The notes under the pieces were generated by a model. The model had not been told where the DNA came from. It worked only from the letters and a program-made list of their open reading frames with translations, and made no database searches. A stretch of 63,189 bases of DNA, the filler included. It is 7 parts of 7 records of this genome, joined end to end, with 100 filler letters (N's around TTAATTAATTAA, not from the genome) between each part and the next. Parts side by side here need not be neighbours in the genome. Positions count along the whole stretch, not along the records: positions 15,762 to 22,669 come from SRR22947727_141; 6 more parts are not named here. One strand, 5' to 3'. Below, piece by piece: positions 1 to 32,903 of this stretch. A program made the translations under genes and the position numbers. Within the stretch, counting starts at the first letter, position 1. Every line of letters starts with the position of its first letter.

Positions 1-1
1 T

Positions 2-226: not shown

Positions 227-263
227 CATCCAATATTTTAGCTATTAATAAATAATTTTAATT

Positions 264-3371: not shown

Positions 3372-3382
3372 TATGTTTGGTT

Positions 3383-7986: not shown

Positions 7987-8054
7987 TAAGATATAATATT
8001 CACAATAAATAGATTATTAAATTTATTTATTACAATAAATTGATATAAAAAAAA

Positions 8055-12334: not shown

Positions 12335-12359
12335 AATAAAAAAATGATACAATATTAAT

Positions 12360-14525
12360 ATGAAGCAAATTTTACAAAATAATAATACTGGTAAAATCAA
12401 AATTGAAGAAGTTCCTATTCCTCAGCTGCAAGATAATTTCATTATAGTTCAAAATTTATTTTCTCTAATTAGCTCAGGAACAGAAAAAACTAAAATAGAA
12501 CTTTCAAAAAAAAATTTATTACAAAAAGCTAAGGCTAGACCTGATTTAGTTCAGAAAGTATTAAAAAAATTGAAAACTGATGGAATAATGGAAACATTTA
12601 ATACAGTAAAATCAAAATTAGATACACCAGTTCCTTTAGGATATAGCACTGCTGGGAAAGTTTTGAGTGTTGGAGGTCATGTTAAAGGAATATCCCCGGG
12701 AGATCTTGTTGCTTGTGCCGGTGCTGGTTATGCTAATCATGCTGAAGTAATTACTGTTCCTATAAATCTAGTTTCAAAAATTCCAAATGGAGTAACTTTA
12801 GAAGAAGCTTCTTTTACTACGTTGGGTGCAATTGCATTACAAGGATGCAGATTATCTAAACCATTAATTGGAGAAACTTTTTTGGTAATTGGTCAAGGTC
12901 TAATAGGACAACTTGCTTCTCAAATTTTAAATGCAAATGGTTGTAGAGTTATAGCTTCTGATTTGAATGACAATCTGATCAATTATTTAAAATCAAAAAA
13001 TTTAGAAACTTATAAATCTGATGAAAATTTAGAAAAAATTATTGAAGAAATAACTGATGGAAATGGTGTTGATGGTGTTTTAATCTGTGCTGGAAGCACT
13101 AGCAATTCTTTAATAGAATTGGCGGGAAGAGTTACAAGAGAAAAAGGTAGAGTTGTAGTTGTTGGTGCTGTAAAAATGGATATTCCTCGTGAAGATTATT
13201 ATAAAAAAGAAATAGAAATTATTATATCAAGATCTTACGGTCCAGGTAGATACGATCCATATTACGAAGAAAAAGGAAACGATTATCCTTTAGCTTATGT
13301 AAGGTTTACTGAAAAACGTAACATGGAAACTTTTCTTTCTTTAATTAATCAAAAAAAAATTAATGTGAAAGAATTGATTACGCATGAATTTCTATTTAGC
13401 GATGTAAATAAAGCTTATGATCTATTAAATCCAAAAAATGATCAATTTCATCTTGGAATATTGCTCAAGTATCAAGATAATAAATTTTTTGAAAATAAAA
13501 ATCAAACTTCAACAAACAAAGTAAAAATTTTTTCAAATAATAAAATATCATTATCATTAATTGGAGCTGGAAATTATGCTAAGGGAAAATTGCTTCCTAT
13601 ATTAAAATCAGATCCAAATGTAGAATTTAATGGAATAGTTACAAATAATGGTTCAAATTCTTTATTTATTAAAGAGACATATAACTTTTTATTCAATACC
13701 AGTAACATTGATGAGCTATTAGATGATAAAACTAACGCAATTATGATTACAACTTTGCATAATACTCATTCAGATTATGTTGTTAAGTCATTAAACGCGA
13801 ACAAACATGTATACGTTGAAAAACCATTAGCATTGAATGTTGAAGAATTAAAAAAAGTAAATCAAGCATTCCTCACTAACAATAGCTCTTTATTAGTAGG
13901 ATTTAATAGAAATTTTTCTTCATTAACCAAAAAAGTTTTAGATTTATTTAAAAATATAGACAAAAAAATTATACATATAAGAGTTAACGCTGGTAAAATA
14001 GATAAAGACCATTGGACACAAAACCCTAAAATCGGCGGCGGTAGGTTAATTGGTGAGGGCTGCCATTTCATATCTCTTGCCTCATGTTTGGCATCCAGTA
14101 AAATTTCTAAAGTTTATTCAAATTCAATTAATTCAAATAATTCAGAAATTATATGTAATGATAATTTTAATATTTCAGTTAAATTTGAAAATGGTAGTAT
14201 TGCAAATATTGTTTACACGTCTGCTGGTTCTGTAGCACTAGAAAAAGAATATATTGAGGTTTTTGGTGGTGGTTGTACAGCTAAAATTATAGATTTTCAA
14301 AAACTTGAGCTGTATCAAGATAATAAAAATATTTTTAGTAAAAAATATTCTTCACAAGATAAGGGGCAAAAACACATGATTTCATCATGGCTTAAAGATA
14401 TTAAATTAAATAAAATTTCAATGAGCTATGATTTTATTATAAACACAAGTTTGTCTACTGTACTTTCTGCTGAATCTTTAATGACAGGTGAACCCGTAGA
14501 CGTAAATTTAAATATATTAGATTAA
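12360..14525 (+). CDS. Bi-domain oxidoreductase (MDR/Zn-ADH-like plus Gfo/Idh/MocA)
   Basis: SLISSGTE, PLGYS..G, SRSYGPGRYD N-terminal domain; IGAGNY, HVYVEKP, VGFNR, GEGCHF C-terminal domain. Confidence 0.9.
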   Translation: MKQILQNNNTGKIKIEEVPIPQLQDNFIIVQNLFSLISSGTEKTKIELSKKNLLQKAKARPDLVQKVLKKLKTDGIMETFNTVKSKLDTPVPLGYSTAGKVLSVGGHVKGISPGDLVACAGAGYANHAEVITVPINLVSKIPNGVTLEEASFTTLGAIALQGCRLSKPLIGETFLVIGQGLIGQLASQILNANGCRVIASDLNDNLINYLKSKNLETYKSDENLEKIIEEITDGNGVDGVLICAGSTSNSLIELAGRVTREKGRVVVVGAVKMDIPREDYYKKEIEIIISRSYGPGRYDPYYEEKGNDYPLAYVRFTEKRNMETFLSLINQKKINVKELITHEFLFSDVNKAYDLLNPKNDQFHLGILLKYQDNKFFENKNQTSTNKVKIFSNNKISLSLIGAGNYAKGKLLPILKSDPNVEFNGIVTNNGSNSLFIKETYNFLFNTSNIDELLDDKTNAIMITTLHNTHSDYVVKSLNANKHVYVEKPLALNVEELKKVNQAFLTNNSSLLVGFNRNFSSLTKKVLDLFKNIDKKIIHIRVNAGKIDKDHWTQNPKIGGGRLIGEGCHFISLASCLASSKISKVYSNSINSNNSEIICNDNFNISVKFENGSIANIVYTSAGSVALEKEYIEVFGGGCTAKIIDFQKLELYQDNKNIFSKKYSSQDKGQKHMISSWLKDIKLNKISMSYDFIINTSLSTVLSAESLMTGEPVDVNLNILD

Positions 14526-14569
14526 ATATAGTAAAATCCTATTCAGTCTCAGGAAAAATAAAAAAATAA

Positions 14570-15552
14570 TTAATATTTATAATTTTTTTCCCATTTAATA
14601 GAACTTAAGATAATATTTTTGATATTATTATATCTAGGCTTTCATTTTAAAATTTTTTTTAATTTTTTAGTTTTCGCATAAACTTGTACGATATCACCTG
14701 ATCTTATTTTTAGATATCGAACATTAATGCTTTTTTAATTTTTTTAAAGATATCTATAATTTGTTTAACAGAGTATCCTTTTTCATAACCACAATTTATA
14801 ACAAAAGAATTATGATCATTTGTAAGATAATTTAATCCTTTAATATGTATATCTGACAAATCAGAAACATGAATATAGTCCCTTATGCAAGTTCCATCCG
14901 TAGTTTTGTAATCATTACCAAAAATTTTAACAACTGGGGTTTTTTAAAGACTCTATAGCTAAATCTTTAATTAAATGACCATGTAATTTTTCTATTTCTT
15001 CACTCTTTCCTGATTGACTGGCACCAGCAACATTAAAATATCTTAAAATCCTATATTTATATTTACATTTTGAATACATTTTTTTTATTAATTCTTCACC
15101 TTTAAATTTTGTATAAGCATAATATCCTTGTTGATTTGGTTTTTATTTTCATCAACTGAACCTTTCACATTGTCATAAATACTGCATGATGATAAAAATA
15201 TAATATTTTTTAAATTAGAATTTTTACAAGCTTGTAAAAGATTTTTAGTCCCGATAATATTATTTTCGTAATATTTTTTTTATTTTTTCCAGCCTCACCA
15301 ACATTGAGATATGCAGCAAGGTGGATAACATAGGTTATATTATTATCTCTTATAATTCTGGTTGTTTTAGATTTATTTTTAATATCAGCTTCAATAAATT
15401 TAGCTTATTTTCTTTATTAGTTTTTTGTAACCAGTTACTAAATTATCTTGAATTATTACTGTTTCTTTATCTTTAATTAATTGTTCGACTATATGAGTAC
15501 CAATATAGCCTGCACCTCCTGTAACTAAAATATTATTCCTTGATTTAGACAT
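14570..15552 (-). pseudogene. galE: UDP-glucose 4-epimerase pseudogene
   Basis: Manual translation gives [69 protein letters not shown] in different frames; frameshifts near 15410, 15280, 15140, 14940, 14730 and an in-frame TGA at 14642-14644. Confidence 0.93.
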
Positions 15553-15661: not shown

Positions 15662-15761
15662 NNNNNNNNNNNNNNNNNNNNNNNNNNNNNNNNNNNNNNN
15701 NNNNNTTAATTAATTAANNNNNNNNNNNNNNNNNNNNNNNNNNNNNNNNNNNNNNNNNNNN
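15662..15761. other. Artificial contig spacer
   Basis: 44 N + TTAATTAATTAA + 44 N. Confidence 0.99.
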
Positions 15762-16286
15762 ACCTCTATTTGGCATACTTGCAAGACCCCAAACAAAAGC
15801 TTTGTCTCCAGCTTCTAGACCACAAACTTCAACACCTTTTTTTCCAAGGTTAAAACCAGCAGCAAATAGGTCAGCACCTGCATAACCAAAACCAGTAGTC
15901 TTAAGCTCAGCTTCTAAATCAGGAAGGGGAGTGTTCATAGTAGTAACTACTATTCCCATTTCTCTTGCTTCATTAATAATAGGTCTCATTGCAGCATCAC
16001 CAGGAAAGCCATAAATAGCAATTCCATCTGGTTGAAGGGCAACAGCTTCTTTGAACTGTTTGATCATGATTTCTGAATTCCACTGAGACCAGTAATAATC
16101 AACATCACAACCAGTGTGTTCAGCAGCAGCTACTGCACCGTTATAAACAATAGTTCCAAATGGTCCACCTTCTGGTCCACCTGGAAAAAAGATAAATTTC
16201 TTATCACAACTGTAGTCATTTTTAGCAATTGCTGAAGTTGATGCAAAAGCAAAAAAAAGGGCTACTAAAGCTAAAATTTTTTTCAT
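15762..16286 (-). CDS. Sugar ABC transporter substrate-binding protein (RbsB-like), truncated by contig end
   Basis: Signal peptide ending AIA, FGTIVYNGAVAAA, EAVALQPDGIAI, GIVVTTMN, GYAGADLFAAG; GGAGG RBS upstream. Confidence 0.88.
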
Positions 16287-16331
16287 TTTTCCTCCATGAA
16301 TTTTATTTTATATATAATTTTTAATTTTATA

Positions 16332-16352
16332 TGTGAAAATGATTTTTTTACA
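16332..16352. promoter_or_regulatory. Candidate operator (imperfect inverted repeat) in divergent promoter region
   Basis: TGTGAAAA-TGATT-TTTTTACA, 7 of 8 arm positions pair; AT-rich background weakens it. Confidence 0.3.
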
Positions 16353-16478
16353 AACTTAATCTAAAAAAAGATCAAAAAATCATAATGCGACAAAAAAACT
16401 ATTAATTTTAACAAATTAGTTAATTAACACACCTAGTTTAAAGTTTGATATTTGGTTAAAAGATGATAATTTAATATT

Positions 16479-17459
16479 ATGGATGTAGATTTAAACAGTT
16501 GGTATAAACCTAATATAGATAAAAAAGAATTTAAAAAACTGTGCAAAAAATCTGACTGGCAAGGTTTTAAACACATGATCATTTATTTTTCATTTTTAGG
16601 ATTATTTGGTTATTTGGCGTTTGCAACATGGGGTACATGGTGGTCTTTATTATTTTTTATAATATACGGAAATATTTGGGGATGTAGTGATGCGATATGG
16701 CATGAAACTGGTCATAGAACAGCATTTAAATCAAAGTTTTGGAATGATTTTTTTTATTACATTGCCAGCTTTATGGATAATTTTGAGCCAATAAGATGGA
16801 GATATTCTCATTATCATCACCATACGTATACAATATTCTCTGATCCTGTAGATTTTGAAATTCATGTTAAAAAACCTACTGATTTAATAATTTTCTTCAC
16901 CCACTATATACCTTTTTCAGGTTTTATATTTTTTAAAAATTCTCTTCAGTGGGAAACAATTAAACATGCATTTGGTGTTACAACAGAAGTAATGAAAGTA
17001 TGTATCCCTGAAAATGAAAGATCAAAATGTCGTTGGTCAGCAAGAAGTCATGTTTTTATTTGGTTAGTTACAATTTTCTGCTCAATTTATTTTCAATCTT
17101 GGTTACCTGTGTTGTTTATTGTACTTCCAAATTTTTATGGCAAAACGTTAGTTATGTTAATGGGGCTAACGCAGCACGCAGGTTTACAAGAAGATGTAAA
17201 AGATCACCGTTTAACGACAAGAACAGTTCATTTAAATCCAATTTTTAGTTTTCTATATTGGCATATGGAGTACCATGTTGAACACCATATGTTTCCTCAG
17301 GTTCCATCTTACAATTTAAAAAAATTACATGCATTAATTAAAGATCAAATGCCTCCCGCAAGAAAGGGATTATGGGGAGCTTATAAAGAAATTATTCCAG
17401 CTCTAGTGAAACAAGCTAAAGATCCAAATTATAAAATTTCTTTAGTTATACCAACTTAA
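16479..17459 (+). CDS. mocD: Membrane di-iron oxygenase, fatty-acid-desaturase family (MocD-like), copy 1
   Basis: His boxes HETGH, HYHHH, HVEHH plus TQHAGL; adjacent to Rieske ferredoxin and reductase as in rhizobial mocDEF. Confidence 0.85.
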   Translation: MDVDLNSWYKPNIDKKEFKKLCKKSDWQGFKHMIIYFSFLGLFGYLAFATWGTWWSLLFFIIYGNIWGCSDAIWHETGHRTAFKSKFWNDFFYYIASFMDNFEPIRWRYSHYHHHTYTIFSDPVDFEIHVKKPTDLIIFFTHYIPFSGFIFFKNSLQWETIKHAFGVTTEVMKVCIPENERSKCRWSARSHVFIWLVTIFCSIYFQSWLPVLFIVLPNFYGKTLVMLMGLTQHAGLQEDVKDHRLTTRTVHLNPIFSFLYWHMEYHVEHHMFPQVPSYNLKKLHALIKDQMPPARKGLWGAYKEIIPALVKQAKDPNYKISLVIPT

Positions 17460-17538
17460 AGCTATACTTCGAAAAAAAATTTATAATAAAAATTATTATA
17501 TTTTTTATGAGTATGACAGAAGGAACATTGGTTAAAAA

Positions 17539-18774
17539 ATGAATTCTCTTAAAAAAATATTAATTATAGGTAGTGGTCAGGCTGCTATTTATGCGGCAAG
17601 TGAATTTAGAAAACATGATAAAGATTCTGCAGTTACAATATTTGGTAATGAAAATTACCATCCTTATGAAAGACCCCCTCTGTCAAAAGAATTTCTTATG
17701 GATAAAAAAAAGGAAGATGAATTTTTATTTTTTTCAAAAAATTTTTTTGATGATCAAAATGTTAGTATTATTAATAAAACAATAGACTCAGTTGATTTTA
17801 AAAATAAATTTTTAATATCTTTTGATAATAATAAATATTTTTATGATAAACTTTTAATTACAACAGGCTCCACTAATAGAAAAATAGAAATTGATAAAGA
17901 AATCGATAATGAGATTTATTATTTAAGAAATTTAGATGAGGCTAATAAAATTAAAAAGAAAGCTTCTGAAGTAAATAACATAGCTATTATAGGTGGGGGA
18001 TTTATAGGCTTAGAAATCGCATCTTCCCTAAACCAGCAAAATAAATCAGTCAATATAATAGAAATTTCTAATCAATTAATGGGAAGAATAATCCCTTCTC
18101 CCATTGCAAATTTAGTAAAAGTCGAACATGAAAAGCATGGTAATAAAATACATCTAGATAGTAAAATTAAAAGCATTGAAAAAATTAATGATACTTTTAA
18201 AATTTTACTTGAGAATGATCATATTATTGAAACAGAAATGATTATTGGGGGTATTGGCTCTATTCCAACTACAGATTTGTTTAATAACTCAGATTTAGAA
18301 TTAAAAAATGGAATTTTAACAAATAAATATAATCAAACATCAGTTGAAAATGTTTATGCGGCGGGAGATGTGTCAAATTTCTACCACCCACTATATCAAA
18401 AAAATATTAGACTTGAGTCTTATCAACATGCCCAAAATCAGGGAATAAATGCTGGAAAGAATATTGCTGGAATAAAATCAGAATATTTATCTGTTCCTTG
18501 GATGTGGTCTGATCAATTTGATTTAAATTTGCAACTCACTGGACTATGTGATGATTATCATGAAATAATTGAAAGAGGTGAGGATATAGAAAATGGAATT
18601 ATTCATTTTTTCATTAAGGATGACAAAATAGTTGGGGCATGTGGTTTGGGCTTAGTAGGTAAAGTTGGGCGAGATATTAGAATTGCTTCAAAATTAATTG
18701 AAAAACAAACTATTGTTGATAAAAAAATTCTATCTGATCAAAATCAAAAATTAAATCCTCTTTTAAAAAAATAG
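17539..18774 (+). CDS. mocF: Ferredoxin-NAD(+) reductase (MocF-like)
   Basis: IIGSGQA, PYERPPLSK, IIGGGFIGLEIA, VYAAGD, PWMWSDQFD. Confidence 0.9.
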   Translation: MNSLKKILIIGSGQAAIYAASEFRKHDKDSAVTIFGNENYHPYERPPLSKEFLMDKKKEDEFLFFSKNFFDDQNVSIINKTIDSVDFKNKFLISFDNNKYFYDKLLITTGSTNRKIEIDKEIDNEIYYLRNLDEANKIKKKASEVNNIAIIGGGFIGLEIASSLNQQNKSVNIIEISNQLMGRIIPSPIANLVKVEHEKHGNKIHLDSKIKSIEKINDTFKILLENDHIIETEMIIGGIGSIPTTDLFNNSDLELKNGILTNKYNQTSVENVYAAGDVSNFYHPLYQKNIRLESYQHAQNQGINAGKNIAGIKSEYLSVPWMWSDQFDLNLQLTGLCDDYHEIIERGEDIENGIIHFFIKDDKIVGACGLGLVGKVGRDIRIASKLIEKQTIVDKKILSDQNQKLNPLLKK

Positions 18775-18830
18775 TCAAAAATTATTATTTCTATTTATTT
18801 TTTAGATTTTATTATTATATAAACAACATT

Positions 18831-19148
18831 ATGGTAGAAGAAAATTGGATAGAAGTTGGCAAAGTAGATAGTATTGATATGGAGGATCTAATTAGGTTCG
18901 ATCATGCTGAAAAAACCTTTTGCGTTTATCGGATAGAAGATGGTTTTTATGCTACAGACGGTATTTGTACGCATGAAGAGGTTCACCTAGAAGATGGTCT
19001 GGTGATGGATGATGAGATAGAATGTCCAATGCATCAAGGGATTTTTAATATTAAAACGGGAGAAGCAATAAGCCCACCTGCTTGTGATGATTTAAAAACA
19101 TATCCAGTAAAAGTTGAAAATGATTTAGTTTACATTAATATACCCTAA
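18831..19148 (+). CDS. mocE: Rieske [2Fe-2S] ferredoxin (MocE-like)
   Basis: CTHEEVHL and IECPMH Rieske ligand motifs, 105 aa. Confidence 0.93.
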   Translation: MVEENWIEVGKVDSIDMEDLIRFDHAEKTFCVYRIEDGFYATDGICTHEEVHLEDGLVMDDEIECPMHQGIFNIKTGEAISPPACDDLKTYPVKVENDLVYINIP

Positions 19149-19165
19149 ATTTTTGGGAGATATTT

Positions 19166-19993
19166 ATGAGTAGAAAAAAATTAACAGTTCACGATTATTT
19201 ACAGTGTAAAGGTAAGAGACAACTCAGTGTCATGTTTGTACATAATGCTGATGAAGCAGCTGCAGCTGAAGAAGCTGGCATTGATATGATTTGCACTTCT
19301 CATGATGCTCCACAATTTGGAATTTACAATTCATTTGATGAATTAAAAAGAATTCGTGCAGCTGCACCAACATGCTTTATGCAATCTGGAGGAGCAGTTC
19401 GAGTTGCTTCAGAATATGAAGCAATGAAGTTATCACATAAATATTTAGATATTGGCGCTGATGTAATTTATGGAGGTAACTGGAGTTATAAGTGGCTTAG
19501 AGCTCTAAGAGATGAATTTGTTCCAATTAATAGTCATGTGGGTTTAGTGCCAGGAATTGCTACATGGATTGGTGGATTTAAAGCTCAAGGAAAAACAGCT
19601 GATTCAGCAATGAAAATTTTACAAAACACAATTGAATTACAAGAAGCTGGTGTTGTGGGCGTTGAATTAGAAGTTGTTCCTCCAAAGGTGGCAGAAGTGA
19701 TAACCAAAAAAGTAGATATTATGACTTTGTCTATGGGAAGTGGATCAGGTTGTGATGGGCAGTATTTATTTGCTAATGATGTACTTGGGTATACCGAAGG
19801 TCATACACCTAGACATGCAAGAATTTATAGAGATTTCAAAAAAGAATTTGCAAAAATTCAAGTAGAGAGAGTTAATGCTTTTAAAGAATTTCATAATGAT
19901 ACTGTTAATAAAAAATTTGATGATCCAAAAATTACTGTTGGAATTGATGAAAAAGAATTTGAAAATTTTTTAAAACTTTCTGAAAAATATTGA
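19166..19993 (+). CDS. PanB-fold (ketopantoate hydroxymethyltransferase-like) protein, copy 1, degenerate active site
   Basis: HVGLVP, GGFKAQGK, ELEVVP, SMGSGSGCDGQ, DVLG..HTPRHA present; GDS, D.PF and VK.EG motifs absent. Confidence 0.85.
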   Translation: MSRKKLTVHDYLQCKGKRQLSVMFVHNADEAAAAEEAGIDMICTSHDAPQFGIYNSFDELKRIRAAAPTCFMQSGGAVRVASEYEAMKLSHKYLDIGADVIYGGNWSYKWLRALRDEFVPINSHVGLVPGIATWIGGFKAQGKTADSAMKILQNTIELQEAGVVGVELEVVPPKVAEVITKKVDIMTLSMGSGSGCDGQYLFANDVLGYTEGHTPRHARIYRDFKKEFAKIQVERVNAFKEFHNDTVNKKFDDPKITVGIDEKEFENFLKLSEKY

Positions 19994-19999
19994 TTGTAA

Positions 20000-21013
20000 A
20001 TGCTTGCTGGTGATGTTGATCTGAATGCTTGGTACAAACCTGATATAGATAAAAAAATCTTAAAAGAATTATCTAGGCGTTCAGATATAAAAGGCACAAT
20101 TGATATTTCTTTATTCATTTTAATTCTCTCATTATCTGGATATTTCTCAATAGTAACCTGGGGGTCTTGGTTATTTATTCCAGCGATTCTACTTTATGGG
20201 AATATTTTTTATTGCAAAATTATAAGCATCCAGCACGAAACTAATCACGAGACATATTTTAAATCAAGAAAGCTTAATAAATTTTTTTATGAGATTACTT
20301 CTTTTCTGGGAGGTTTTGAGTCTGTAAGATGGAAATGGAGTCATTTTCATCATCACACTTACACAATTTTTACTCATGAAGAAGTTTACGATTATGAAAA
20401 TAATAGTCCAAGACCAACTGAGCCAATAAGATTTTTATTAAATTTTTTACCTTTAGGGCCGATCATCAATATTCAAAAAGTTAGACACTTCACACATTTT
20501 GAAATTATAAAACATTCTTTAGGTCTTATTTCTAATGTTGTAAAAATTACTGTTCCTAAAAAAGAAATTAATAAAGTTATAAACATGTCTCGTATTTATG
20601 TGTCACTATGGATACTTATTATTGGAATCTCTTTACTTTTAAATTCTTGGCTACCTGTTATTATGATCATCTTACCACCATTCTATGGCAATACTATCTT
20701 AATGATTTGCGGGATGACACAACATGCAGGTTTGGCAGATAATGTGAAGGATCATCGAAAAAGTACTCGTACAGTTATTTTAAATCCCTTTTTTAGTTTT
20801 TTATATTCTAATATGGAATATCATATTGAACATCACATCTTTCCAAAAATACCATGTCACAATTTAAAAAAATTTCACAAAACAATTAAAGATCAAATGC
20901 CGCCTCCTAAACGAGGAGTAATAGACGCGTATCAATCTATAATCCCAGCTATTTTTAAACAAGCGAAAGATAAAAATTACTTTATTGATGTTAAAATACC
21001 AACTACAAATTAA
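20000..21013 (+). CDS. Membrane di-iron oxygenase, fatty-acid-desaturase family (MocD-like), copy 2
   Basis: His boxes HETNH, HFHHH, HIEHH, TQHAGL; N-terminus DVDLNAWYKPDIDKK nearly matches copy 1. Confidence 0.85.
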   Translation: MLAGDVDLNAWYKPDIDKKILKELSRRSDIKGTIDISLFILILSLSGYFSIVTWGSWLFIPAILLYGNIFYCKIISIQHETNHETYFKSRKLNKFFYEITSFLGGFESVRWKWSHFHHHTYTIFTHEEVYDYENNSPRPTEPIRFLLNFLPLGPIINIQKVRHFTHFEIIKHSLGLISNVVKITVPKKEINKVINMSRIYVSLWILIIGISLLLNSWLPVIMIILPPFYGNTILMICGMTQHAGLADNVKDHRKSTRTVILNPFFSFLYSNMEYHIEHHIFPKIPCHNLKKFHKTIKDQMPPPKRGVIDAYQSIIPAIFKQAKDKNYFIDVKIPTTN

Positions 21014-21015
21014 AT

Positions 21016-21849
21016 ATGAGAAAAAAAATAACAGTTAAAGATTTACAAAATTTTAAAGGTAAAAAAAAGTTAGTATGTATTCTTATCAAGAACATAAAAG
21101 AAGCACTAGCTGCCGATAAAGTTGGTTTCGAAATGTTAGCAACTGGTGTGGCTGGAGAATACAAAAATGATGATGGTCATCCTGAGTTTGATGAATTAGT
21201 AAAAATGAGAGAAGCAGCACCTACGGCTTTTATGCACTGTGGGGCGCCTGATAGTCTTATACCTACAATAGATGAAGCAAAAAAGTTTTCTTTTAAGATA
21301 TTAGAACATGGTTTTGATATGCTTTATTGTAATACGAGGTTCGATCTCATTAAAGAATTATATAAGGAAGGCATTCCTTGTTTGGGCCATGTTGGGTTAG
21401 TGCCTCCAAAAAGAACTTGGACAGGAGGATTTGTAGCTGTTGGAAAAACTGCCTCTGAAGCAATGTGGATTTATGATCAATGTTTAAAGATCCAGGATGC
21501 TGGTGGTGTTGCAATTGAAATGGAGTGTGTTCCTTATAAAATTGCAGAGGCAATTTCTAAAAAAATCAAACCGACAGTAATGTCTATGGGTAGTGGGCCT
21601 GGATGTGATGTTGAGTATGTATTTGGGTGTGACATATTGGGAACAACCAAAGGTCATATTCCGCGACATGCTAAAAAATATAGGGATTTTCAACAAGAAT
21701 TTGATAGATTACAACAAGAAAGAGAGAATGCTTTTCAAGAATTTTATGATGATGTTCATGCAGGAGGTTTTCCAGAGAAAAAAAATATTGTTGAAATTAA
21801 TGAAAATGAATTAGATACATTCTTAAATAGATTAGAACAAAGAAGTTAA
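21016..21849 (+). CDS. PanB-fold protein, copy 2, degenerate active site
   Basis: GHVGLVP, GGFVAVGK, EMECVP, SMGSGPGCD, DILG..GHIPRHAKKY; lacks GDS and VK.EG. Confidence 0.85.
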   Translation: MRKKITVKDLQNFKGKKKLVCILIKNIKEALAADKVGFEMLATGVAGEYKNDDGHPEFDELVKMREAAPTAFMHCGAPDSLIPTIDEAKKFSFKILEHGFDMLYCNTRFDLIKELYKEGIPCLGHVGLVPPKRTWTGGFVAVGKTASEAMWIYDQCLKIQDAGGVAIEMECVPYKIAEAISKKIKPTVMSMGSGPGCDVEYVFGCDILGTTKGHIPRHAKKYRDFQQEFDRLQQERENAFQEFYDDVHAGGFPEKKNIVEINENELDTFLNRLEQRS

Positions 21850-21850
21850 T

Positions 21851-22669
21851 ATGAGCGAAAAAAATTTAAATGATGAAAATTTTGGAACTAGAGACAAAAG
21901 AGGGCATTGGAAACCTTTTGGAACTATTGCTGTAAATCCACCCAAATCAATTTTTTTTAACCCAATTAAACTTATAAAATACTTTTTTAAATTCCCAGGA
22001 ATATTTTTTCCATGGACATTTGTTTTTGGTTTTATAACTGTTCTTACTTACTTATTTCTTACACCTTCATTAGAGACAATGAAAACATTTCAAGTTGATT
22101 GGATAGCATTCATTTTTTTTAGAAATGCAGCAATTATCTTATTATGGACTGGTTTTTTTCACCTGAGATTAAAAAATCAAGGAACTTCCTTTAAGTATAA
22201 CCCAAGACCGCTAGAAGAGAATAATCCAACTTTTTTATTTAATAACCAAACTAAAGATAATTTATTTTATACTTTTTGCAGCGCTATTCCTTTGTGGACA
22301 GCTTATGAGGTAGTTACTTTTTGGGCTTTTGCAAATCAAGTAATTCCATATGTTAGCTGGGAGATATATCCCGTATATTGTTGTTTTTTATTTTTTCTTG
22401 TTCCTTTTATAAGAGATGCGCATTTCTACTTAACACATAGATTACTTCATTGGGGACCTTTGTATAGAATTGCTCACAAAGTGCATCATCGTAATACCAA
22501 TACTGGAGCATGGTCTGGCATGTCTATGCACCCTATAGAGCACATTCTTTATTTTTCTGGAATTCTCATTCATTGGATTATACCTTCACATCCCCTTGTA
22601 GCAATGTATCATGTTTTCCATGCAGGGTTAGCTCCAACGCCAGGTCATACTGGATATGAAAAAATGACT
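21851..22669 (+). CDS. Sterol desaturase/fatty acid hydroxylase-family di-iron enzyme, truncated by contig end
   Basis: HFYLTHRLLH, HKVHH, SMHPIEH, GHTGYE motifs. Confidence 0.88.
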
Positions 22670-22769
22670 NNNNNNNNNNNNNNNNNNNNNNNNNNNNNNN
22701 NNNNNNNNNNNNNTTAATTAATTAANNNNNNNNNNNNNNNNNNNNNNNNNNNNNNNNNNNNNNNNNNNN
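22670..22769. other. Artificial contig spacer
   Basis: 44 N + TTAATTAATTAA + 44 N. Confidence 0.99.
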
Positions 22770-22771: not shown

Positions 22772-23215
22772 AGGAAAAAATTACAAATTGCAAAAAACTT
22801 TGGGTGTAAATATATATTTAATACAAATAATTCAAAAAATCTAAAAAAAATTTCGTTAAGTCTTGATAAGGAGAAAATCAAATTCAATATTGAACTTTCT
22901 GGAAATATTGAAATGATGGAATTTGCATACAAAAATTTATCAAAAAATGGAATATTTGTGCTAGCTGGCAATCCGAAAAAAGGTCAAAAAATTAAAATTA
23001 ATCCTTACGATTTAATATTTGGAAAAAAAATATTTGGTTTTTCAGGAAATGATATTTCTTTACAAAAAAATATTAATATTTATAGTAAAATAATAAAACG
23101 GACTGGAATAAAAAAATTAAGAAAAATTTATAATTCCTATTTTTTTAAAAATATAAATAAAGCTATTGAGGATTTTAATAAAGGAAAAGTTTTAAGACCT
23201 CTAATAAAACTTTAA
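22772..23215 (+). CDS. Zinc-binding (MDR) alcohol dehydrogenase, 3' part
   Basis: Frame is open from the spacer: KLQIAKNFGCKYIFN...ELSGN...GIFVLAG...INKAIEDFNKGKVLRPLI. Confidence 0.8.
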   Translation, partial: RKKLQIAKNFGCKYIFNTNNSKNLKKISLSLDKEKIKFNIELSGNIEMMEFAYKNLSKNGIFVLAGNPKKGQKIKINPYDLIFGKKIFGFSGNDISLQKNINIYSKIIKRTGIKKLRKIYNSYFFKNINKAIEDFNKGKVLRPLIKL

Positions 23216-23218
23216 AAA

Positions 23219-23893
23219 TTATTTTAATTTATTATAAAAAAAAATATTTTGCTTGCCCATTAAAAATTTATAAACTTTTTTTGCTACAGAAGTAACATCT
23301 GCAGGTATTTTCTTTTTTTTATTGTAGTGAGTAAAATATTTATTATTATGAAACATTTTAGTATCAATGCTTGACAAAATAACAGTTTTGAAATCTATTT
23401 TTTTTAATGTTTCATTAAAAATTTTACTAAAATTATAAATAATTTTTTTTGAAGCTGTATAACCTTTGTTTAATTTAGATCTAGAGTAAATATTATAGCT
23501 AGAAATTGATGTCACAGAATGAAGCAAATTTTTTTCTAAAAATTTTAAAATTAAAGATACTTGGTTGTGAAAATTAATTTTATAAACTAGGGTAAAATAA
23601 TTCATATTTGTAAAATCTTTAAAAGTATCTTTCATATTTATTCCTGCATTTAAGATAAAATAGCATTTTTGTTTATTTATTTTTAAAATTATTTTCTTTA
23701 AAACCTGATTATTGAATGCGTCATCTTTAAAATTATGTTTAAATTGATAAAAATTTTTATAATTTGTTTTAAGATTTATTTTTCTTTTAGAGATACCTAT
23801 TAAAATATTATTTTTATCTTTAATGATTTGCTTGGATAACTCAAACCCCAAACCATCTGTATGTCCGGTCAATATAAAATATTTTTTACTCAT
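23219..23893 (-). CDS. Short-chain dehydrogenase/reductase
   Basis: TGHTDGLG, LNAG, catalytic YTASK. Confidence 0.82.
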   Translation of the reverse strand: MSKKYFILTGHTDGLGFELSKQIIKDKNNILIGISKRKINLKTNYKNFYQFKHNFKDDAFNNQVLKKIILKINKQKCYFILNAGINMKDTFKDFTNMNYFTLVYKINFHNQVSLILKFLEKNLLHSVTSISSYNIYSRSKLNKGYTASKKIIYNFSKIFNETLKKIDFKTVILSSIDTKMFHNNKYFTHYNKKKKIPADVTSVAKKVYKFLMGKQNIFFYNKLK

Positions 23894-24593
23894 AAATACG
23901 ATATTTTGATATTTTTATTAAAGTCATCATGACATTGAAAATATTTTTTAACCTAAAGGCTTTTGAAAGCCCCTCAGTTCTATCTAAATTTTTTATTTTT
24001 ACTTGCGTAAATGAAGATTTTTTCTTTTTTAACAAACTTGCTAAAATTTCAGTTTGATAACCATACCCAGCAGATAATTTTTTTAATTGTATAATATTTT
24101 TAGTAAGATGAACTACTGGACCATTATAGTATTTTACTTTTAAACCCAAAATAACATTTACTAACAAAGTGTACATTTTAGAAATGAGCTTTCTTGTTTT
24201 AGAGCGAACATCCAAATTATCAAAATATGGTATTATTATTTCACTTTTTCCAAGGTATTTTAGAATTTTTACTATAGAATTTTTTGGTTCAGTATTGTCG
24301 CCATTGATAAGCATATAAAATTTACCTTTCGCACAATTTGCATACTTAAAGTACGATTTTCCAAGGCCTAAATTCTTTTTATTTTTTTTTAAAAAAACAT
24401 TTTTATTATTTTTTGTAATTTTTTTAATTACTTTATAGCTATCATCTGTAGAACCATCATCTACAATTAAGATCTCATATTTAAAATTATAAAAATTTAC
24501 AGCACTTATTAAATTTTGATAAGCTTTTAAAATATTTTTTTCTTCATTAAAACAGGGTATAAAAAAAGTAATATCTTTATTTAGCTTATCCAC
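23886..24593 (-). CDS. Glycosyltransferase family 2 (DPM1/GtrB-like)
   Basis: IPCFNEE, VDDGSTD, NLGLG, INGD; GTG start. Confidence 0.88.
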   Translation of the reverse strand: MDKLNKDITFFIPCFNEEKNILKAYQNLISAVNFYNFKYEILIVDDGSTDDSYKVIKKITKNNKNVFLKKNKKNLGLGKSYFKYANCAKGKFYMLINGDNTEPKNSIVKILKYLGKSEIIIPYFDNLDVRSKTRKLISKMYTLLVNVILGLKVKYYNGPVVHLTKNIIQLKKLSAGYGYQTEILASLLKKKKSSFTQVKIKNLDRTEGLSKAFRLKNIFNVMMTLIKISKYRIYE

Positions 24594-25053
24594 TGAACCT
24601 CACTAAAAAAAGTTTATGAATAATTTTAAAGCACTTTTTAACAAAATAGATTTTATTTGTTACATAGAGATTTTTTTTTTTTTTTATTAAATATTTGTTA
24701 TCAATTAAAATTTTAACTCGAGGTAAAAAACTTTCATATTTAAACTTTGCATAATATTTTTGAAAATTATAGTTTTTATTTTTTATATCTAACAATATTT
24801 TGACAGAAATAGATTTTAAAAGACCGGCGTAAATAAAAAAAACTAAAATTGTAAGAGTAAAATTAGTATTAAAGATATGTATAATATTAGGAATATTAAT
24901 TTCAAAATATATATAATTAATTGTTATAAATATTACAGAATTAAAAATTAGATATAAGGAAAATTTTTTTGATGTTATTTTCATAAATAAAAAATTTATA
25001 AAAATTAAAATTATAAAATATAAAAAAGAAAATATCAGTATACTTTTAACCAT
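24586..25053 (-). CDS. Hypothetical membrane protein
   Basis: Three hydrophobic segments then basic soluble tail; overlaps neighbours in operon style. Confidence 0.7.
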   Translation of the reverse strand: MVKSILIFSFLYFIILIFINFLFMKITSKKFSLYLIFNSVIFITINYIYFEINIPNIIHIFNTNFTLTILVFFIYAGLLKSISVKILLDIKNKNYNFQKYYAKFKYESFLPRVKILIDNKYLIKKKKNLYVTNKIYFVKKCFKIIHKLFLVRFSG

Positions 25054-25543
25054 TTTTTTTTATAGAAAATGTAAAATTTAAAAATTTAATTAAAAAATAT
25101 AATATTAATCCAAATTTTGTTAAAAAAATAAAATTTTTATCTTTAATTAAGTTGAGCTTAATTAAGTCTTTCATTCTTTTTTTTAGCATCCATTTTAAAG
25201 TATTATTATTTGCATAAAATTTTTCTAATTCTTTAAGTTTAAATTTTTTTTTTTTTATGTTTGTTACTAATGAAATTGTAAATCCCCGAGATATTAATGA
25301 AAAAAATTCTATATAAATTATAAAAACTGCGAAATTCAAAATTAAAAAGTATAAATGTATACTCATTAATTTTAATATTAAGTAAGAAATAAAAAAACTT
25401 AAAACATTGCTTAAAACTAAATTTAACTCTTTATTGTTTCGTATAACCCTTATGATTAAAATATGTAAAAAAAAAGTTAAAAAAAAAAATATAGCTACGT
25501 AGATAGCTAAATTTAATAATTGATGTAAAAATGAAAATAACAC
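25046..25543 (-). CDS. Hypothetical membrane protein, probable paralog of the adjacent gene
   Basis: Three hydrophobic segments then KRMKDLIKLNLI...LTKFG tail. Confidence 0.7.
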   Translation of the reverse strand: MLFSFLHQLLNLAIYVAIFFFLTFFLHILIIRVIRNNKELNLVLSNVLSFFISYLILKLMSIHLYFLILNFAVFIIYIEFFSLISRGFTISLVTNIKKKKFKLKELEKFYANNNTLKWMLKKRMKDLIKLNLIKDKNFIFLTKFGLILYFLIKFLNFTFSIKKNG

Positions 25544-25547
25544 CTAA

Positions 25548-26693
25548 TTATATATTAAAAAATTTGTTTATTTCTTTAACCATGTGATAAATCTCCCTGC
25601 CACTTATAAATTCATGTACTGGTAAAGATATTGAAGTTTTTGCTAATTTTTCAGCAACAGGGAAGTCGCCTTTTTTGTATTTAAGATATTTGGCAGCTTT
25701 TTGCAAATGCACTGGTATTGGATAATGAACTTTTGCATCTATATTCTTTGAAATTAAATATTTTTGTAACTCATCTCTTTTCTTTACGTTTATATGATAA
25801 AGATGGAATACTTCTTTCAAGTATCTTTTCCTTTTCACAAGAATTACATTTTTATTTTTTGTTAAATACTTATCAAGCATCTTTGAGTTTCTAATTCTTT
25901 TTTTTGTAATATTGTCTAACTTGAATTTCATTTTGTAATTAGCTACTGCAGCCTGAATTGTATCTAGTCGAGAGTTATATCCAAAAATTTCTACATGATT
26001 TCTATCTTTAAGACCGTGATTTCTTAACAAATAGAGTTTTTTTGCTAATTCTTTTTTATTTGTAACAATAAAACCTCCATCACCCCAAACATTCAAATTT
26101 TTTAAAGGATGCATGCTGTATGTACAAGTATCACCATAATTTACTAAGTAATTATTTTTATATTTAGCTCCTATAATATGAGCGCTATCTTGAACTATTT
26201 TTAAATTATATTTTTTTGCAATTGAAAATATTTTATCCATTTCGCATGGTCTACCGGCCCAATGAACTGGTATTATTGCTTTTGTTTTTTTAGTAATAGC
26301 TGATTCAATTTTTGTTTCATCAATATTGTAATCATTTTTTACATCAACAAATACTGGTTTGGCTCCTGCAGTCACGATTGACCCTACAGTTGCAACAAAG
26401 GTATATGAAACAGTTATAACTTCGTCCCCTGATCCTATTCCCAATGCTTTTAAACTAAGTAATAATGCATCTGTTCCATTACCAACACTAATTGCATACT
26501 TTGCACCAGTTCTTCTGGCAAAATTTTTTTCACAAAGATCAACTTCTTTTCCTAGTGTGTAATCTCCTTTTTGTACAACTTTTTCTATTTTTTTAAAAAT
26601 TTTTTTATAATCTGAGAATTGCTCAATTAAATAACTGTGATTAATTTTTAACTTCTCATTAGCTTTATATTGAATTGGTAAAAAATTTTTCAT
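25548..26693 (-). CDS. DegT/DnrJ/EryC1/StrS sugar aminotransferase
   Basis: NGTDAL, GDEVIT, PVHWAG, DSAH, SMHPLKNL (PLP Lys), GYNSRLD. Confidence 0.95.
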   Translation of the reverse strand: MKNFLPIQYKANEKLKINHSYLIEQFSDYKKIFKKIEKVVQKGDYTLGKEVDLCEKNFARRTGAKYAISVGNGTDALLLSLKALGIGSGDEVITVSYTFVATVGSIVTAGAKPVFVDVKNDYNIDETKIESAITKKTKAIIPVHWAGRPCEMDKIFSIAKKYNLKIVQDSAHIIGAKYKNNYLVNYGDTCTYSMHPLKNLNVWGDGGFIVTNKKELAKKLYLLRNHGLKDRNHVEIFGYNSRLDTIQAAVANYKMKFKLDNITKKRIRNSKMLDKYLTKNKNVILVKRKRYLKEVFHLYHINVKKRDELQKYLISKNIDAKVHYPIPVHLQKAAKYLKYKKGDFPVAEKLAKTSISLPVHEFISGREIYHMVKEINKFFNI

Positions 26694-27697
26694 TATTTTT
26701 TTAAATTTTTGTCTTGATAAATCATATCTTTTGCTGAAATCTTTTTAATGTATTTTTTATGATAGTCTACTACTTTTTTTAAACCAGATATTAAAGTATA
26801 GACTGGACGCCAATTTAATTGTTTTTTTGTTTTTTTGCAGTCAAGTTTATATAAAAAATCTTGACCTAATCTTCGATTAACTTTTTTTATTAATTTTTTT
26901 TGATCATATGATTTTATTTTACAAATATTTTTAATAATATCTAAAACACTATTAAAATTTTTACCCGAAAAATGATAAGTTTTTCCTATTTTTCCCTTTA
27001 AAATAATCCTTTTTATTCCATTGCAAAAATCATCTTTATAAATAAAATTTCTTTGAGATCGCCCATTACCTTCAAGTGGAAATTTTTTTTCACTATCAAT
27101 ACAAGAAATTAACTTTGGAATTAATCTGTGCAAGGGCTGACCTGGACCATAAAAATTAGAAAATCTAGATATAATTAAAGGAAATTGAAAATTTTTATGA
27201 TAATTTTTTAAAAAAATTTCAAAACTTAGTTTTGATGAAGCATACGGAGTCTTTGGTTTAAATGAATCAAAATCTTCATTAATATACTTACTAGATGAAC
27301 CAAAAATTTCTGGTGTTGATATATAAATATATTTATCTAAAAAATTTGATGTACTTAAATACTGAATTGTTTTAATTTTAGATAAAACATTAATTTGATA
27401 ATAAAGTTCAGGATTTTTCCAACTCTCATTAACCATGCAAATTGATGCAAAATCTAAAATAATATTCGGCTTTATCTTTTTTACTAAATTTAGGAGCTTG
27501 TGGGATTTTTTTGATAAATCAATTTTATAATTTTTAAAAAAATTTATGTTTTTATTATGTTTGTAAAGTAATAAGTAATTTTTTTTTCTTTTTCTATAGG
27601 TGCCAAAAACTAAATATTTATTTTCAGTTAACAAATTATCAATTAGAGATGCTCCAGAAAAGCTTGAACTTCCTAAAACTAATATTTTTTTTTTCAT
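26693..27697 (-). CDS. NDP-sugar dehydratase/epimerase (RmlB-like SDR)
   Basis: GSSSFSG, STPEIFG, PYASSK, RFSNFYGPGQ..RLIP. Confidence 0.85.
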   Translation of the reverse strand: MKKKILVLGSSSFSGASLIDNLLTENKYLVFGTYRKRKKNYLLLYKHNKNINFFKNYKIDLSKKSHKLLNLVKKIKPNIILDFASICMVNESWKNPELYYQINVLSKIKTIQYLSTSNFLDKYIYISTPEIFGSSSKYINEDFDSFKPKTPYASSKLSFEIFLKNYHKNFQFPLIISRFSNFYGPGQPLHRLIPKLISCIDSEKKFPLEGNGRSQRNFIYKDDFCNGIKRIILKGKIGKTYHFSGKNFNSVLDIIKNICKIKSYDQKKLIKKVNRRLGQDFLYKLDCKKTKKQLNWRPVYTLISGLKKVVDYHKKYIKKISAKDMIYQDKNLKK

Positions 27698-27702
27698 CTA
27701 AA

Positions 27703-28764
27703 TTAAAATGGACCTTTAAATTTAGCATCTGGAATATCATTAGCTATATTTTTGTTAAATTTTATATTTATTTTTCGATTAATTAATTTTTGTATTTGCT
27801 TTAAAATATCATTTTTGCTTACATAAAAATCCTTAGAATAAAAAACACTCGTAGGTGAAGGTGTATCTGGCAAAGTAATCAATATTGGTGGTTTAATTAA
27901 TTTTATATTTTTATCTAAATATAATCTAGATATTATTTCCGAACCTACGGAGCATATAGGATGTGAGATAGTATCAAGAACTAAAAGTTTTTTTGTTCTT
28001 TTTAAGGACTTCTTTACTAATGTTAAGTCAAGTGGTTTTATACTTCTGAGGTCTATATGGTCAAAAAAAATTTTTTTTTCTATAAGTTTTTCTTTTAAAG
28101 ATAAGATTTCTAATGTAGATAAGGAATAAGTTACAACTGTAAAATCATTTCCTTTACTTAAAAGTCTTGATGTTCCTAGTTGATCTTTAGAATTTTTTTT
28201 TATAATTTTTTTTTCTTCTAATCCATGAAGCCATCTATGTTCAATAAATAAAACTGGATTTGGATCTCTAATGGAAGCTTTTAATAAATTGTAAGCATCT
28301 AGAGGAAACGTTGGCATCACTACTTTTAACCCAGGTATATGAGCGAACCAGCTTTGCAAGCTTTGAGAATGAGTTGGGCCCTGACCCCATCCCTTACCTA
28401 CTATCAATCGTATTGTAATTGGGATACTTTTCTGCCCACCAAACATATAATGCCACTTTGCTGCGCTATTAACTAATTGATCCATAGCAAGTAAAAAAAA
28501 ATCTAATCTTTGATGCATCATTACACACGGATTCTTATAAAGAGACATTCCAATACCTATTCCAGTCATAGCATTTTCCGATGTAGGTGTTTCAAATACT
28601 CTCTCTGATCCAAATTTTTCCACTAAGCCTTTGGTGGTACCAAAAAATCTTAAAGCATCATTTACTCCTAGTCCAAAACATACAAGCTTTTTGTTTCTTG
28701 TCATTTCTTCTTCTAAGGCAAGATTAATTGCTTCTGAGTAACTAATGTTCATTTTTATAAACAA
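27703..28764 (-). CDS. ThDP-dependent enzyme, PDH E1 beta-like subunit
   Basis: ERVFETPTSENAMTG, DQLVNSAAK, GPTHSQS, PGLKVV, PVLFIEH, IDLRSIKPLD; start may be the second Met. Confidence 0.92.
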   Translation of the reverse strand: MFIKMNISYSEAINLALEEEMTRNKKLVCFGLGVNDALRFFGTTKGLVEKFGSERVFETPTSENAMTGIGIGMSLYKNPCVMMHQRLDFFLLAMDQLVNSAAKWHYMFGGQKSIPITIRLIVGKGWGQGPTHSQSLQSWFAHIPGLKVVMPTFPLDAYNLLKASIRDPNPVLFIEHRWLHGLEEKKIIKKNSKDQLGTSRLLSKGNDFTVVTYSLSTLEILSLKEKLIEKKIFFDHIDLRSIKPLDLTLVKKSLKRTKKLLVLDTISHPICSVGSEIISRLYLDKNIKLIKPPILITLPDTPSPTSVFYSKDFYVSKNDILKQIQKLINRKINIKFNKNIANDIPDAKFKGPF

Positions 28765-31324: not shown

Positions 31325-31328
31325 TAAT

Positions 31329-32846: not shown

Positions 32847-32903
32847 AAATAAAATTTTATATCTATTTTTTGTAAAATAAAATTATGTTAGTAAATAATC
32901 TGC

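Follow-up and report, generated by a model that had tools for sequence, protein, structure and literature searches.

Why should two genes of the pantothenate-enzyme family PanB stand in a run of membrane oxygenase genes? The question is raised by a stretch of DNA of 63,189 nucleotides (nt), here called the window, in which seven parts from seven records of one genome are joined with filler between them. In the part taken from record SRR22947727_141 (positions 15,762 to 22,669), two PanB-like paralogues matching PF02548 are encoded on the plus strand, A at 19166..19993 (275 amino acids, aa) and B at 21016..21849 (277 aa). Both are members of a distinct, widespread PanB-fold subfamily without the Mg2+/2-oxoacid residues, A and B lying in different subclades of it. 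The window is AT-rich (G+C content 0.20–0.33), and the A protein is 100% identical to that of an uncultured alphaproteobacterium single-cell genome contig (L001). A search that took A as its query gave 72 related loci, among which is a complete Pelagibacter genome (L003). Because their records are titled Pelagibacter, Pelagibacteraceae or uncultured Alphaproteobacteria, the window is treated as SAR11.

A PanB-fold subfamily without the Mg2+/2-oxoacid residues

Both proteins exceed the PF02548 cut-off of 28.7 bits, A with 131.4 bits (residues 82–251 only) and B with 114.8 bits. On the TIGR00222 panB equivalog model they reach 109.8 and 89.7 bits, far below its cut-off of 207.55; on the same model four canonical SAR11 PanBs score 229.5–283 bits and E. 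coli PanB 441.2 bits. An AlphaFold2 model of A has a predicted local distance difference test score (pLDDT) of 95.2, and its top Foldseek matches are all PanBs, with template modelling (TM) scores of 0.65–0.78 and 20–26% identity. Since the best structural matches are PanBs at only this level of identity, the clade is without any solved structure. Searches with phmmer relate the proteins to the solved PanBs of the 1M3U, 1OY0 and 3VAV group with E values of 1e-22 to 7e-14, and a search of the ESM Atlas returned only clusters named PanB.

A reading of the window from its sequence alone (the sequence-only reading) had described both genes as keeping the C-terminal PanB motifs, and the translations bear this out. 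A contains SHVGLVPG, IGGFKAQGK, VELEVVP, SMGSGSGCDGQ and GHTPRHAR, and B contains GHVGLVPP, TGGFVAVGK, IEMECVP, SMGSGPGCDVE and GHIPRHAK. Individual residues were compared through pairwise HMMER alignments to PDB 1M3U and a MAFFT alignment with E. coli PanB translated from L081; the numbering is that of E. coli PanB, checked against the same translation. The positions of D45 and S46 are occupied by H46/D47 in A and V45/A46 in B, that of D84 by glycine in both (Gly75 in A, Gly76 in B), and that of K112 by tyrosine in both (Tyr102 in A, Tyr104 in B). E114 falls within a two-residue deletion (113–114) shared by the two proteins. The motifs around D45/S46 (VGDS), D84 (ADLPF) and K112/E114 (VKIEG) are thus gone, as the sequence-only reading had seen for GDS, the Asp of D.PF and the Lys/Glu of VK.EG, and the same absence extends over the 63 core rows described below. 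In E. coli PanB we take Asp45, Asp84 and Glu114 to be the Mg2+ ligands, and Ser46 and Lys112 to bind the carboxylate of the 2-oxoacid. Glu181 and His136, which we take to be catalytic (all of these roles as attributed to the 2003 structure papers), have equivalents in A (Glu169/His124) and in B (Glu170/His125). Compared with E. coli PanB, both proteins also carry an insertion of approximately 11 residues and a C-terminal extension.

The pattern holds throughout a signature alignment of 91 rows, including 63 core subfamily rows and 19 canonical rows. Asp45, Ser46, Asp84, Lys112 and Glu114 are invariant in all 19 canonical rows. Among the core rows, Asp is found at position 45 in 0 of 63, Asp at 84 in 0 of 63 and Lys at 112 in 0 of 63, and residues 113–114 are deleted in every one. 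The loss of the five residues is not due to chance, because they are invariant in 19/19 canonical rows and lost in 63/63 core rows. Position 112 is Tyr in 52 core rows, His in 4, Met in 3 and Phe in 2; the near-invariant Tyr gained here is Y102 in A. His136, Glu181, Asp209 and Asp217 are retained in all 63 core rows, and two residues have been gained in all 63, namely Glu in place of V179 (E167 in A) and His in place of F229 (H217 in A). The subfamily signature consists of Gly/Ala 84, Tyr 112, the 113–114 deletion, Glu 179 and His 229, all present in A and B, which score 352–357 bits on a hidden Markov model (HMM) of the subfamily.

For phylogenetic analysis, an IQ-TREE quick search (LG+G4) was run on 91 rows, identical rows having been merged beforehand: 42 subfamily rows from the loci, 17 canonical rows and 32 of 50 full-length representatives (those used in the HMM, A1). 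One clade, supported by a Shimodaira–Hasegawa-like approximate likelihood ratio test (SH-aLRT) value of 99, takes in the whole set of 42 subfamily rows from the loci, together with 28 of the 32 representatives. Two further representatives lie on its stem, and the opposite side holds the 17 canonical rows and the remaining two. The separate clade anticipated by the sequence-only reading is therefore recovered. The representatives at the stem and base (P0242, P0256, P0151 and P0174) show intermediate states, some keeping Lys112 with Asp84 lost and Glu179 gained, and others lacking the 113–114 deletion, which suggests that the active site was remodelled stepwise.

The subfamily HMM, built from 45 members, was searched against 401 Pseudomonadota genomes, one of which (G387) is unpublished and enters this tally only. 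The scores are bimodal: 28 matches in 18 genomes score 245–358 bits, and the next match, at 212 bits, is at the level of canonical PanB. A search with A in 1.84 billion representative proteins retrieved 68 at E≤1e-30 and 1413 at E≤1e-10, and 2015 clusters at 90% identity were found around A alone. Purifying selection on the clade is strong: over 69 orthologues of A (2293 unsaturated pairs) the median ratio of nonsynonymous to synonymous substitution rates (dN/dS) is 0.041, and over 17 orthologues of B (135 pairs) it is 0.066, a range of 0.04–0.07. Some unusual representatives were set aside. P0122 (542 aa, with two PanB-like halves) was considered as a fused heterodimer and rejected, since its halves repeat a single sequence exactly; a circular or repeated contig probably gave rise to it as an artefact of assembly. 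The long representatives P0264, P0255 and P0245 are canonical PanBs, one of them fused to PanE.

Canonical PanB exists side by side with the subfamily. Each of four related SAR11 genomes of 1.4–1.6 Mb (G001–G004), reached through related loci, encodes one canonical PanB (255–303 bits on PF02548, 229.5–283 bits on TIGR00222) together with 3–6 PanB-like paralogues scoring 111–141 bits on PF02548. No pan genes were found near A and B or their relatives at the scanned loci. A further member is RHE_PE00443, the 'second MOHMT' (3-methyl-2-oxobutanoate hydroxymethyltransferase) of Rhizobium etli CFN42, encoded on plasmid p42e and described, in the account of it given there, as keeping 5 of 12 invariant active-site residues with no metal-binding domain detected (Villasenor et al., 2011; PMC3082293). 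According to the same account, an R. etli panB mutant is a pantothenate auxotroph despite the presence of RHE_PE00443, constitutive expression of the gene did not complement the mutant (given as data not shown), and the passages on this gene assign it no function (PMC3082293). Plasmid p42e contains exactly one PF02548 match, inside the annotated coding sequence 488817–489632, and on the subfamily HMM RHE_PE00443 reaches 348 bits, where E. coli PanB has 189; it also falls within the clade. Rescue of a panB auxotroph, which the sequence-only reading had named as the outcome that would contradict it, has thus been tried on a relative of A and B and has left that reading standing. Its claim of a separate, repurposed subfamily agrees with the clade, the residue losses, the coexisting canonical PanB and the behaviour of RHE_PE00443, and the conclusion that A/B-type proteins are not pantothenate enzymes is supported.

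Oxygenase pairing and the gene cluster in the window

Three oxygenase families, PF00487 (FA_desaturase), PF04116 (FA_hydroxylase) and PF05721 (PhyH), were mapped across the four SAR11 genomes, and gene neighbourhoods were scanned with Pfam. Such an oxygenase gene lies within 5 kb of 17 of the 19 PanB-like genes (3/3 in G001, 4/4 in G002, 6/6 in G003 and 4/6 in G004). The genomes carry 8, 22, 19 and 24 of these oxygenase genes, respectively, and the share of each genome within 5 kb of one is at most approximately 6–17%. For streamlined genomes of 1.4–1.6 Mb, 8–24 oxygenase genes are a remarkably large outlay. They can also be concentrated: an 'oxygenase island' in G004 (C1, 280–312 kb) holds at least 13 oxygenase genes and two PanB-like genes in approximately 32 kb.

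The pairing extends beyond SAR11. Among 20 loci from other Pseudomonadota (G+C content 47–70%), 15 were scanned, the other five being near-copies in gene layout; open reading frames (ORFs) of the high-G+C loci were called by a choice weighted on G+C at third codon positions. The gene string contains an FA_desaturase gene (accompanied by a Rieske ferredoxin and in some cases by a reductase) or an FA_hydroxylase gene in 14 of the 15. A tblastn search retrieved 257 plasmid records, chiefly from Rhizobium and Sinorhizobium, and all four annotated plasmid loci have the order FA_desaturase, MocE-type ferredoxin, (FAD reductase), PanB-like gene, behind a LacI regulator. That a rebuilt PanB barrel is so strictly paired with hydroxylases of three families is a new result.

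Around these modules, the genes for uptake and downstream steps vary from locus to locus. On an Aestuarium plasmid the operon adjoins genes for a 'rhizopine-binding protein' and an ATP-binding cassette (ABC) transporter, and iolG, iolC and iolD. Sugar-type binding proteins (Peripla_BP_4 or SBP_bac_1) are among the neighbouring uptake proteins, and SAR11 loci encode an IlvD/Edd dehydratase, an SMP-30 lactonase, a DHDPS-type aldolase and GH4. An OpuAC betaine-type binding protein is encoded at L137, tripartite ATP-independent periplasmic (TRAP) transporters at L139 and L141, and histidine-ammonia-lyase-like and ornithine-cyclodeaminase-like proteins at L125–L129. The PanB-like proteins would be accessory enzymes to modules of O2-dependent hydroxylases, in clusters that break down small polar compounds such as sugars, cyclitols and betaines. 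In the window, MocE and MocF serve two MocD-type di-iron oxygenases, and an FA_hydroxylase is present as well; at other loci PhyH 2-oxoglutarate dioxygenases fill this position.

The cluster in the window begins with a divergent gene on the minus strand (15714..16286, its ORF entering a masked stretch) for a Peripla_BP_4 periplasmic sugar-type solute-binding protein. The residues translated from 15762–16286 score 55.6 bits on PF13407, and L083 and L086 have full-length orthologues beside the same cluster, with scores of 106–107.5 bits. All following genes are on the plus strand. The first MocD-type membrane di-iron oxygenase of the FA_desaturase family (MocD1, 16479..17459; PF00487, 119.6 bits) is found in most of the 72 SAR11 loci. 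It is followed by a MocF-like FAD ferredoxin-NAD(P)+ reductase (17539..18774; PF07992, 191.7 bits, with Reductase_C), whose top NCBIfam matches are Rieske-dioxygenase ferredoxin reductases, every one under its cut-off. The next gene encodes a MocE-family Rieske 2Fe-2S ferredoxin (18831..19148), with 63.3 bits on PF00355 and, on TIGR02377 (MocE_fam_FeS), 138.5 bits, above the cut-off of 136.15. An FA_desaturase-type oxygenase and an FAD ferredoxin reductase thus share one gene string with MocE, as in a MocDEF-type module. After A comes the second MocD-type membrane di-iron oxygenase of the FA_desaturase family (MocD2, 20000..21013; PF00487, 122.8 bits), which matches the arginine hydroxylase GntB weakly (54.9 bits, cut-off 380). 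B is followed by a membrane oxygenase of the FA_hydroxylase (sterol desaturase/methyl-oxidase) family (21851..22717, its ORF entering a masked stretch), with 48.8 bits on PF04116 over 21851–22669; the full-length orthologue L083:11602-12609 scores 71.6 bits. The last four genes (A, MocD2, B and FA_hydroxylase) are separated by spacers of 6, 2 and 1 nt.

The sequence-only reading had each PanB-like gene following a MocD gene. This is correct for B, which follows MocD2; the order before A is MocD1-MocF-MocE-A, and the gene directly preceding A is that of the MocE ferredoxin. That reading also allowed a hetero-oligomer of A and B. A is found in all 72 SAR11 loci, as expected of the retrieval query, and a B-type gene in 18. 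Both MocD2 and FA_hydroxylase are seen at 63 of the 72 loci, with B between them in 16 and absent in 47, where MocD2 directly precedes the hydroxylase gene. The commonest order, at 40 loci, is MocD1-MocF-MocE-A-MocD2-FA_hydroxylase, and other genomes mostly have one PanB-like copy per operon. With B missing at 47 of 63 loci and single copies elsewhere, an obligate A–B hetero-oligomer is unlikely. It is more fitting to regard A and B as each serving an oxygenase of its own, with B an accessory gene of the cluster that is carried by this genome. A complex prediction for MocD2 with B, run without controls, gave a score of 0.00, from which nothing is concluded.

Contigs from RNA libraries cover A and B in 4/4 runs from four studies at ≥90% identity. 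They are compatible with transcription in seawater; they neither prove it nor rank the genes. Bins 17642–18055 are not covered by these contigs. A contig from run X9 joins MocD1 to MocD2 (16801/20341), skipping 3539 bases, with 6 foreign letters at the junction and a short side of only 21 letters; it may be a natural variant with recombined paralogous oxygenase genes, or a chimera. In the window, surface-polysaccharide-type genes of very low G+C content (0.20–0.24) border the cluster (approximately 0.28–0.31) on both sides, at 1–15000 and 22900–34000. They include genes for UDP-GlcNAc 2-epimerase, UDP-sugar dehydrogenase, asparagine synthase, glycosyltransferase and aminotransferase. In G003, lactonase and dehydratase genes come after the same cluster instead.

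A proposed role in one-carbon transfer

The best explanation that we can offer, held tentatively and with not quite an even chance of being right, is that the subfamily transfers a hydroxymethyl group or formaldehyde to tetrahydrofolate (THF) in oxidative demethylation. The oxygenase would hydroxylate an O- or N-methyl group of a small polar substrate. The PanB-like protein would then take the resulting hydroxymethyl group (a hemiacetal or hemiaminal), or released formaldehyde, and would hand the one-carbon (C1) unit to THF as 5,10-methylene-THF, which amounts to running the half-reaction of PanB backwards. O or N would leave, and not a Mg2+-stabilised enolate; because a heteroatom leaving group would need no enolate stabilisation, the metal/2-oxoacid site would be dispensable. 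We infer the use of THF, the capture of a C1 unit and a methylated substrate. The residues for the 2-oxoacid have been lost, the catalytic Glu and His have been kept and hydroxylases adjoin, so that a C1 unit is the simplest common denominator. Moreover, the substrate class varies from locus to locus and the PanB-like gene stays, which suggests that what the loci share is a small product and not a carbon skeleton.

The pocket itself has changed in character. By reasoning from barrel topology, Lys112 (strand 4) and position 179 (strand 6) would lie in the same layer. A pocket that has gone from cationic to acidic and hydrogen-bonding suits neutral or cationic substrates, not carboxylates.

A THF-linked role in handling formaldehyde or hydroxymethyl groups is plausible, and fits both the hydroxylase pairing and one folate-related neighbour: at L129 a PurU-like formyl-THF deformylase gene (7117–7998; ACT and Formyl_trans_N) directly adjoins the PanB-like gene. 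As the enzyme is described in PMC7770189, 5,10-methylene-THF is the only cosubstrate of PanB other than the 2-oxoacid. SAR11 is reported to oxidise methyl groups through THF, and strain HTCC1062 to lack the formaldehyde-activating enzyme, in an account whose pathway-figure legend includes a symbol for a 'spontaneous reaction' (PMC3160333). Because of this methyl oxidation via THF in a strain without that enzyme, a C1 role fits SAR11 physiology. In addition, Table 1 of PMC4433239, a paper about methanesulfonate monooxygenase, lists a GcvT gene and a 'PanB' gene, which may belong to the clade, on a 20.3-kb Filomicrobium segment with msm genes. Taken further, the subfamily could be an unrecognised enzyme class, a hydroxymethyl/formaldehyde:tetrahydrofolate transferase forming the second component of two-component oxidative O-/N-demethylases, in which a hydroxylase would be matched with a PanB-like C1 acceptor, a possibility that we take seriously and yet lean somewhat against.

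Several points weigh against this C1-transfer proposal. A folate gene is a direct neighbour at only 1 of approximately 35 loci, the non-SAR11 locus L129. The PanB-like copies at L089 and at L086:7643-8518 have no recognised oxygenase within 5 kb (2 of 19), and L141 is the one locus of 15 without an assigned oxygenase pairing. We only infer that the part of the barrel which has been kept is the one for THF or C1; Glu181 presumably contacts the hydroxymethyl group of ketopantoate. The gained Glu167 and His217 could combine with Glu169 and His124 into a new metal site, serving quite different chemistry. A methyl substrate is assumed, since simple C–H hydroxylation is also among the reactions of MocD-type and PhyH enzymes. 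Finally, 3–6 copies per streamlined genome, in subclades tracking oxygenase type, argue against a generic formaldehyde scavenger, and this pattern fits equally well an enzyme acting on each hydroxylated skeleton. At L089, two genes flanking the PanB-like paralogue (5958–7067 and 8075–9028; 369 and 317 aa) match no Pfam family at E 0.01 and may be unrecognised partners.

The alternative that survives best, although we consider it unlikely to be the right one, is a folate-independent action of the PanB-like proteins on the hydroxylated carbon skeleton itself, as lyases, retro-aldolases, isomerases or tautomerases of the ICL/PEPM-PanB superfamily type. They would work through a rebuilt site (Glu167, Glu169, His217, His124 and Tyr102), possibly with a new metal, and each paralogue would be tuned to what the neighbouring oxygenase produces. 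Such a role accords with the way subclades follow oxygenase type: the L135/L136/L138 clade goes with FA_hydroxylase, a large rhizobial-type clade with FA_desaturase and Rieske ferredoxin, and the L082/L090 clade with PhyH. The 3–6 copies in each 1.4–1.6 Mb genome and the Glu and His gained invariantly in 63/63 core rows speak for it as well, and so do two natural fusions, P0271 and P0272, which join a PanB-like domain to a domain whose standalone relatives are modelled with the sugar-binding fold of galactose mutarotase; the family of that domain is also represented within the L134 operon. Against it, the substrates implied by the transporters vary widely while the protein stays approximately 40% identical with the same invariant residues, the carbon-substrate residues of PanB are exactly the ones lost, and the clusters already hold TIM-barrel (AP_endonuc_2), dehydratase, aldolase and dehydrogenase genes.

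In both fusions an acidic linker connects the PanB-like domain with a domain of approximately 340 aa that belongs to no Pfam family. The C-terminal domain of P0271 has no Pfam match and no meaningful PDB sequence match, and its BLASTP similarity to the DUF4432 protein of L125 is not significant (E 0.75). Standalone relatives of the extra domain (the P0273–P0392 family) gave 1781 hits at E≤1e-5, mostly labelled hypothetical, and the model of one is a galactose-mutarotase-like beta-sandwich (pLDDT 93.3, TM 0.5–0.68). L134:4064-5242, in the same operon as a PanB-like gene, is such a relative.

It is improbable that the PanB-like proteins are non-catalytic pseudoenzymes serving as structural, assembly or regulatory subunits of the oxygenases. 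Loss of the canonical metal and substrate ligands would suit such a role, as would the tight packing with oxygenase genes, seen in the 2- and 1-nt spacers of the window and in a 4-nt overlap at L083 (7131–7964 and 7961–8821). However, the equivalents of Glu181 and His136 are kept and the new Glu and His are invariant in 63/63 core rows, dN/dS is as low as 0.04–0.07, and the partner oxygenases have three unrelated folds, which makes one conserved docking surface unlikely. The view embodied in public annotation, that A and B are still ketopantoate hydroxymethyltransferases, either redundant or condition-specific PanB isozymes, draws on the exceeded PF02548 cut-off and on the sources' label of 3-methyl-2-oxobutanoate hydroxymethyltransferase, but is very improbable and already close to refuted by TIGR00222 scores of 89–110 bits against a cut-off of 207.55, the loss of all five Mg/2-oxoacid residues, the canonical PanB in 4/4 genomes searched, a neighbourhood without pan genes and the R. 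etli member's reported lack of complementation (PMC3082293).

The annotated enzyme name and its pantothenate Gene Ontology term are thus almost certainly wrong for the clade, and this misannotation inflates the apparent vitamin-B5 capacity of SAR11 and of rhizobia. The clade is abundant, and it has several copies even in a streamlined genome, where paralogues are seldom retained. If the C1-transfer proposal is true, these proteins would provide a dedicated route from oxidative demethylation to methylene-THF. They would serve as a marker that the most abundant marine heterotroph, and rhizosphere bacteria as well, draw on methylated sugars, cyclitols and osmolytes. With each SAR11 copy next to an oxygenase of its own, they would also explain how SAR11 harvests methyl groups from such compounds into its THF oxidation pathway without releasing formaldehyde. 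Even if the proposal is wrong, an unstudied two-gene module has been defined that is approachable in tractable rhizobia. A second PanB without active-site residues and not serving pantothenate synthesis is already in print for R. etli, in the 2011 account of that gene (PMC3082293). Newly found here are the large conserved clade with a defined signature, its multiplication in SAR11 and its tie to three hydroxylase families. Of the open papers searched, subscription journals and supplements excepted, only PMC3082293 deals with a member, and none covers the function of the clade, its extent and signature, the SAR11 multiplication or the hydroxylase tie.

Comparison with known systems

Canonical PanB (EC 2.1.2.11; PDB 1M3U, 1OY0 and 3VAV) has the same TIM-barrel fold as the subfamily and shares with it the HxGLxP, GGxxxxG and GxG motifs and the equivalents of His136, Glu181, Asp209 and Asp217. 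In contrast to canonical PanB, the subfamily has lost the five Mg/2-oxoacid residues and gained Glu167, His217 and Tyr102, and its genes reside in oxygenase clusters and not with pan genes. RHE_PE00443 resembles A and B in belonging to the clade and in its operon of FA_desaturase, MocE, reductase and PanB-like genes, but shares approximately 40% identity with them and is present as a single copy, not two. No other paper among those searched mentions the locus tags of the three genes upstream of it.

Other systems are comparable by analogy only. The GcvT-fold folate modules of dimethylglycine and sarcosine dehydrogenases, sarcosine oxidase and trimethylamine N-oxide (TMAO) demethylase have folds unrelated to that of the subfamily, as do the formaldehyde-activating enzymes Fae and Gfa. 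The logic is the one proposed for the subfamily: the formaldehyde equivalent that arises when a methyl group is oxidised is trapped on a carrier, and free formaldehyde is avoided. For SAR11, Gfa and a THF-linked route are described in the pathway account of PMC3160333.

The window and the rhizopine (3-O-methyl-scyllo-inosamine) system MocDEF share a MocE-family ferredoxin together with an FA_desaturase-type oxygenase and an FAD reductase. MocDEF demethylates rhizopine in rhizobia. The likeness to moc extends to the related loci, where MocA-like, MocB-like ('rhizopine-binding protein') and MocC-like (AP_endonuc_2) genes and iol genes are found. The window differs from MocDEF in having two MocD-type genes and an FA_hydroxylase gene.

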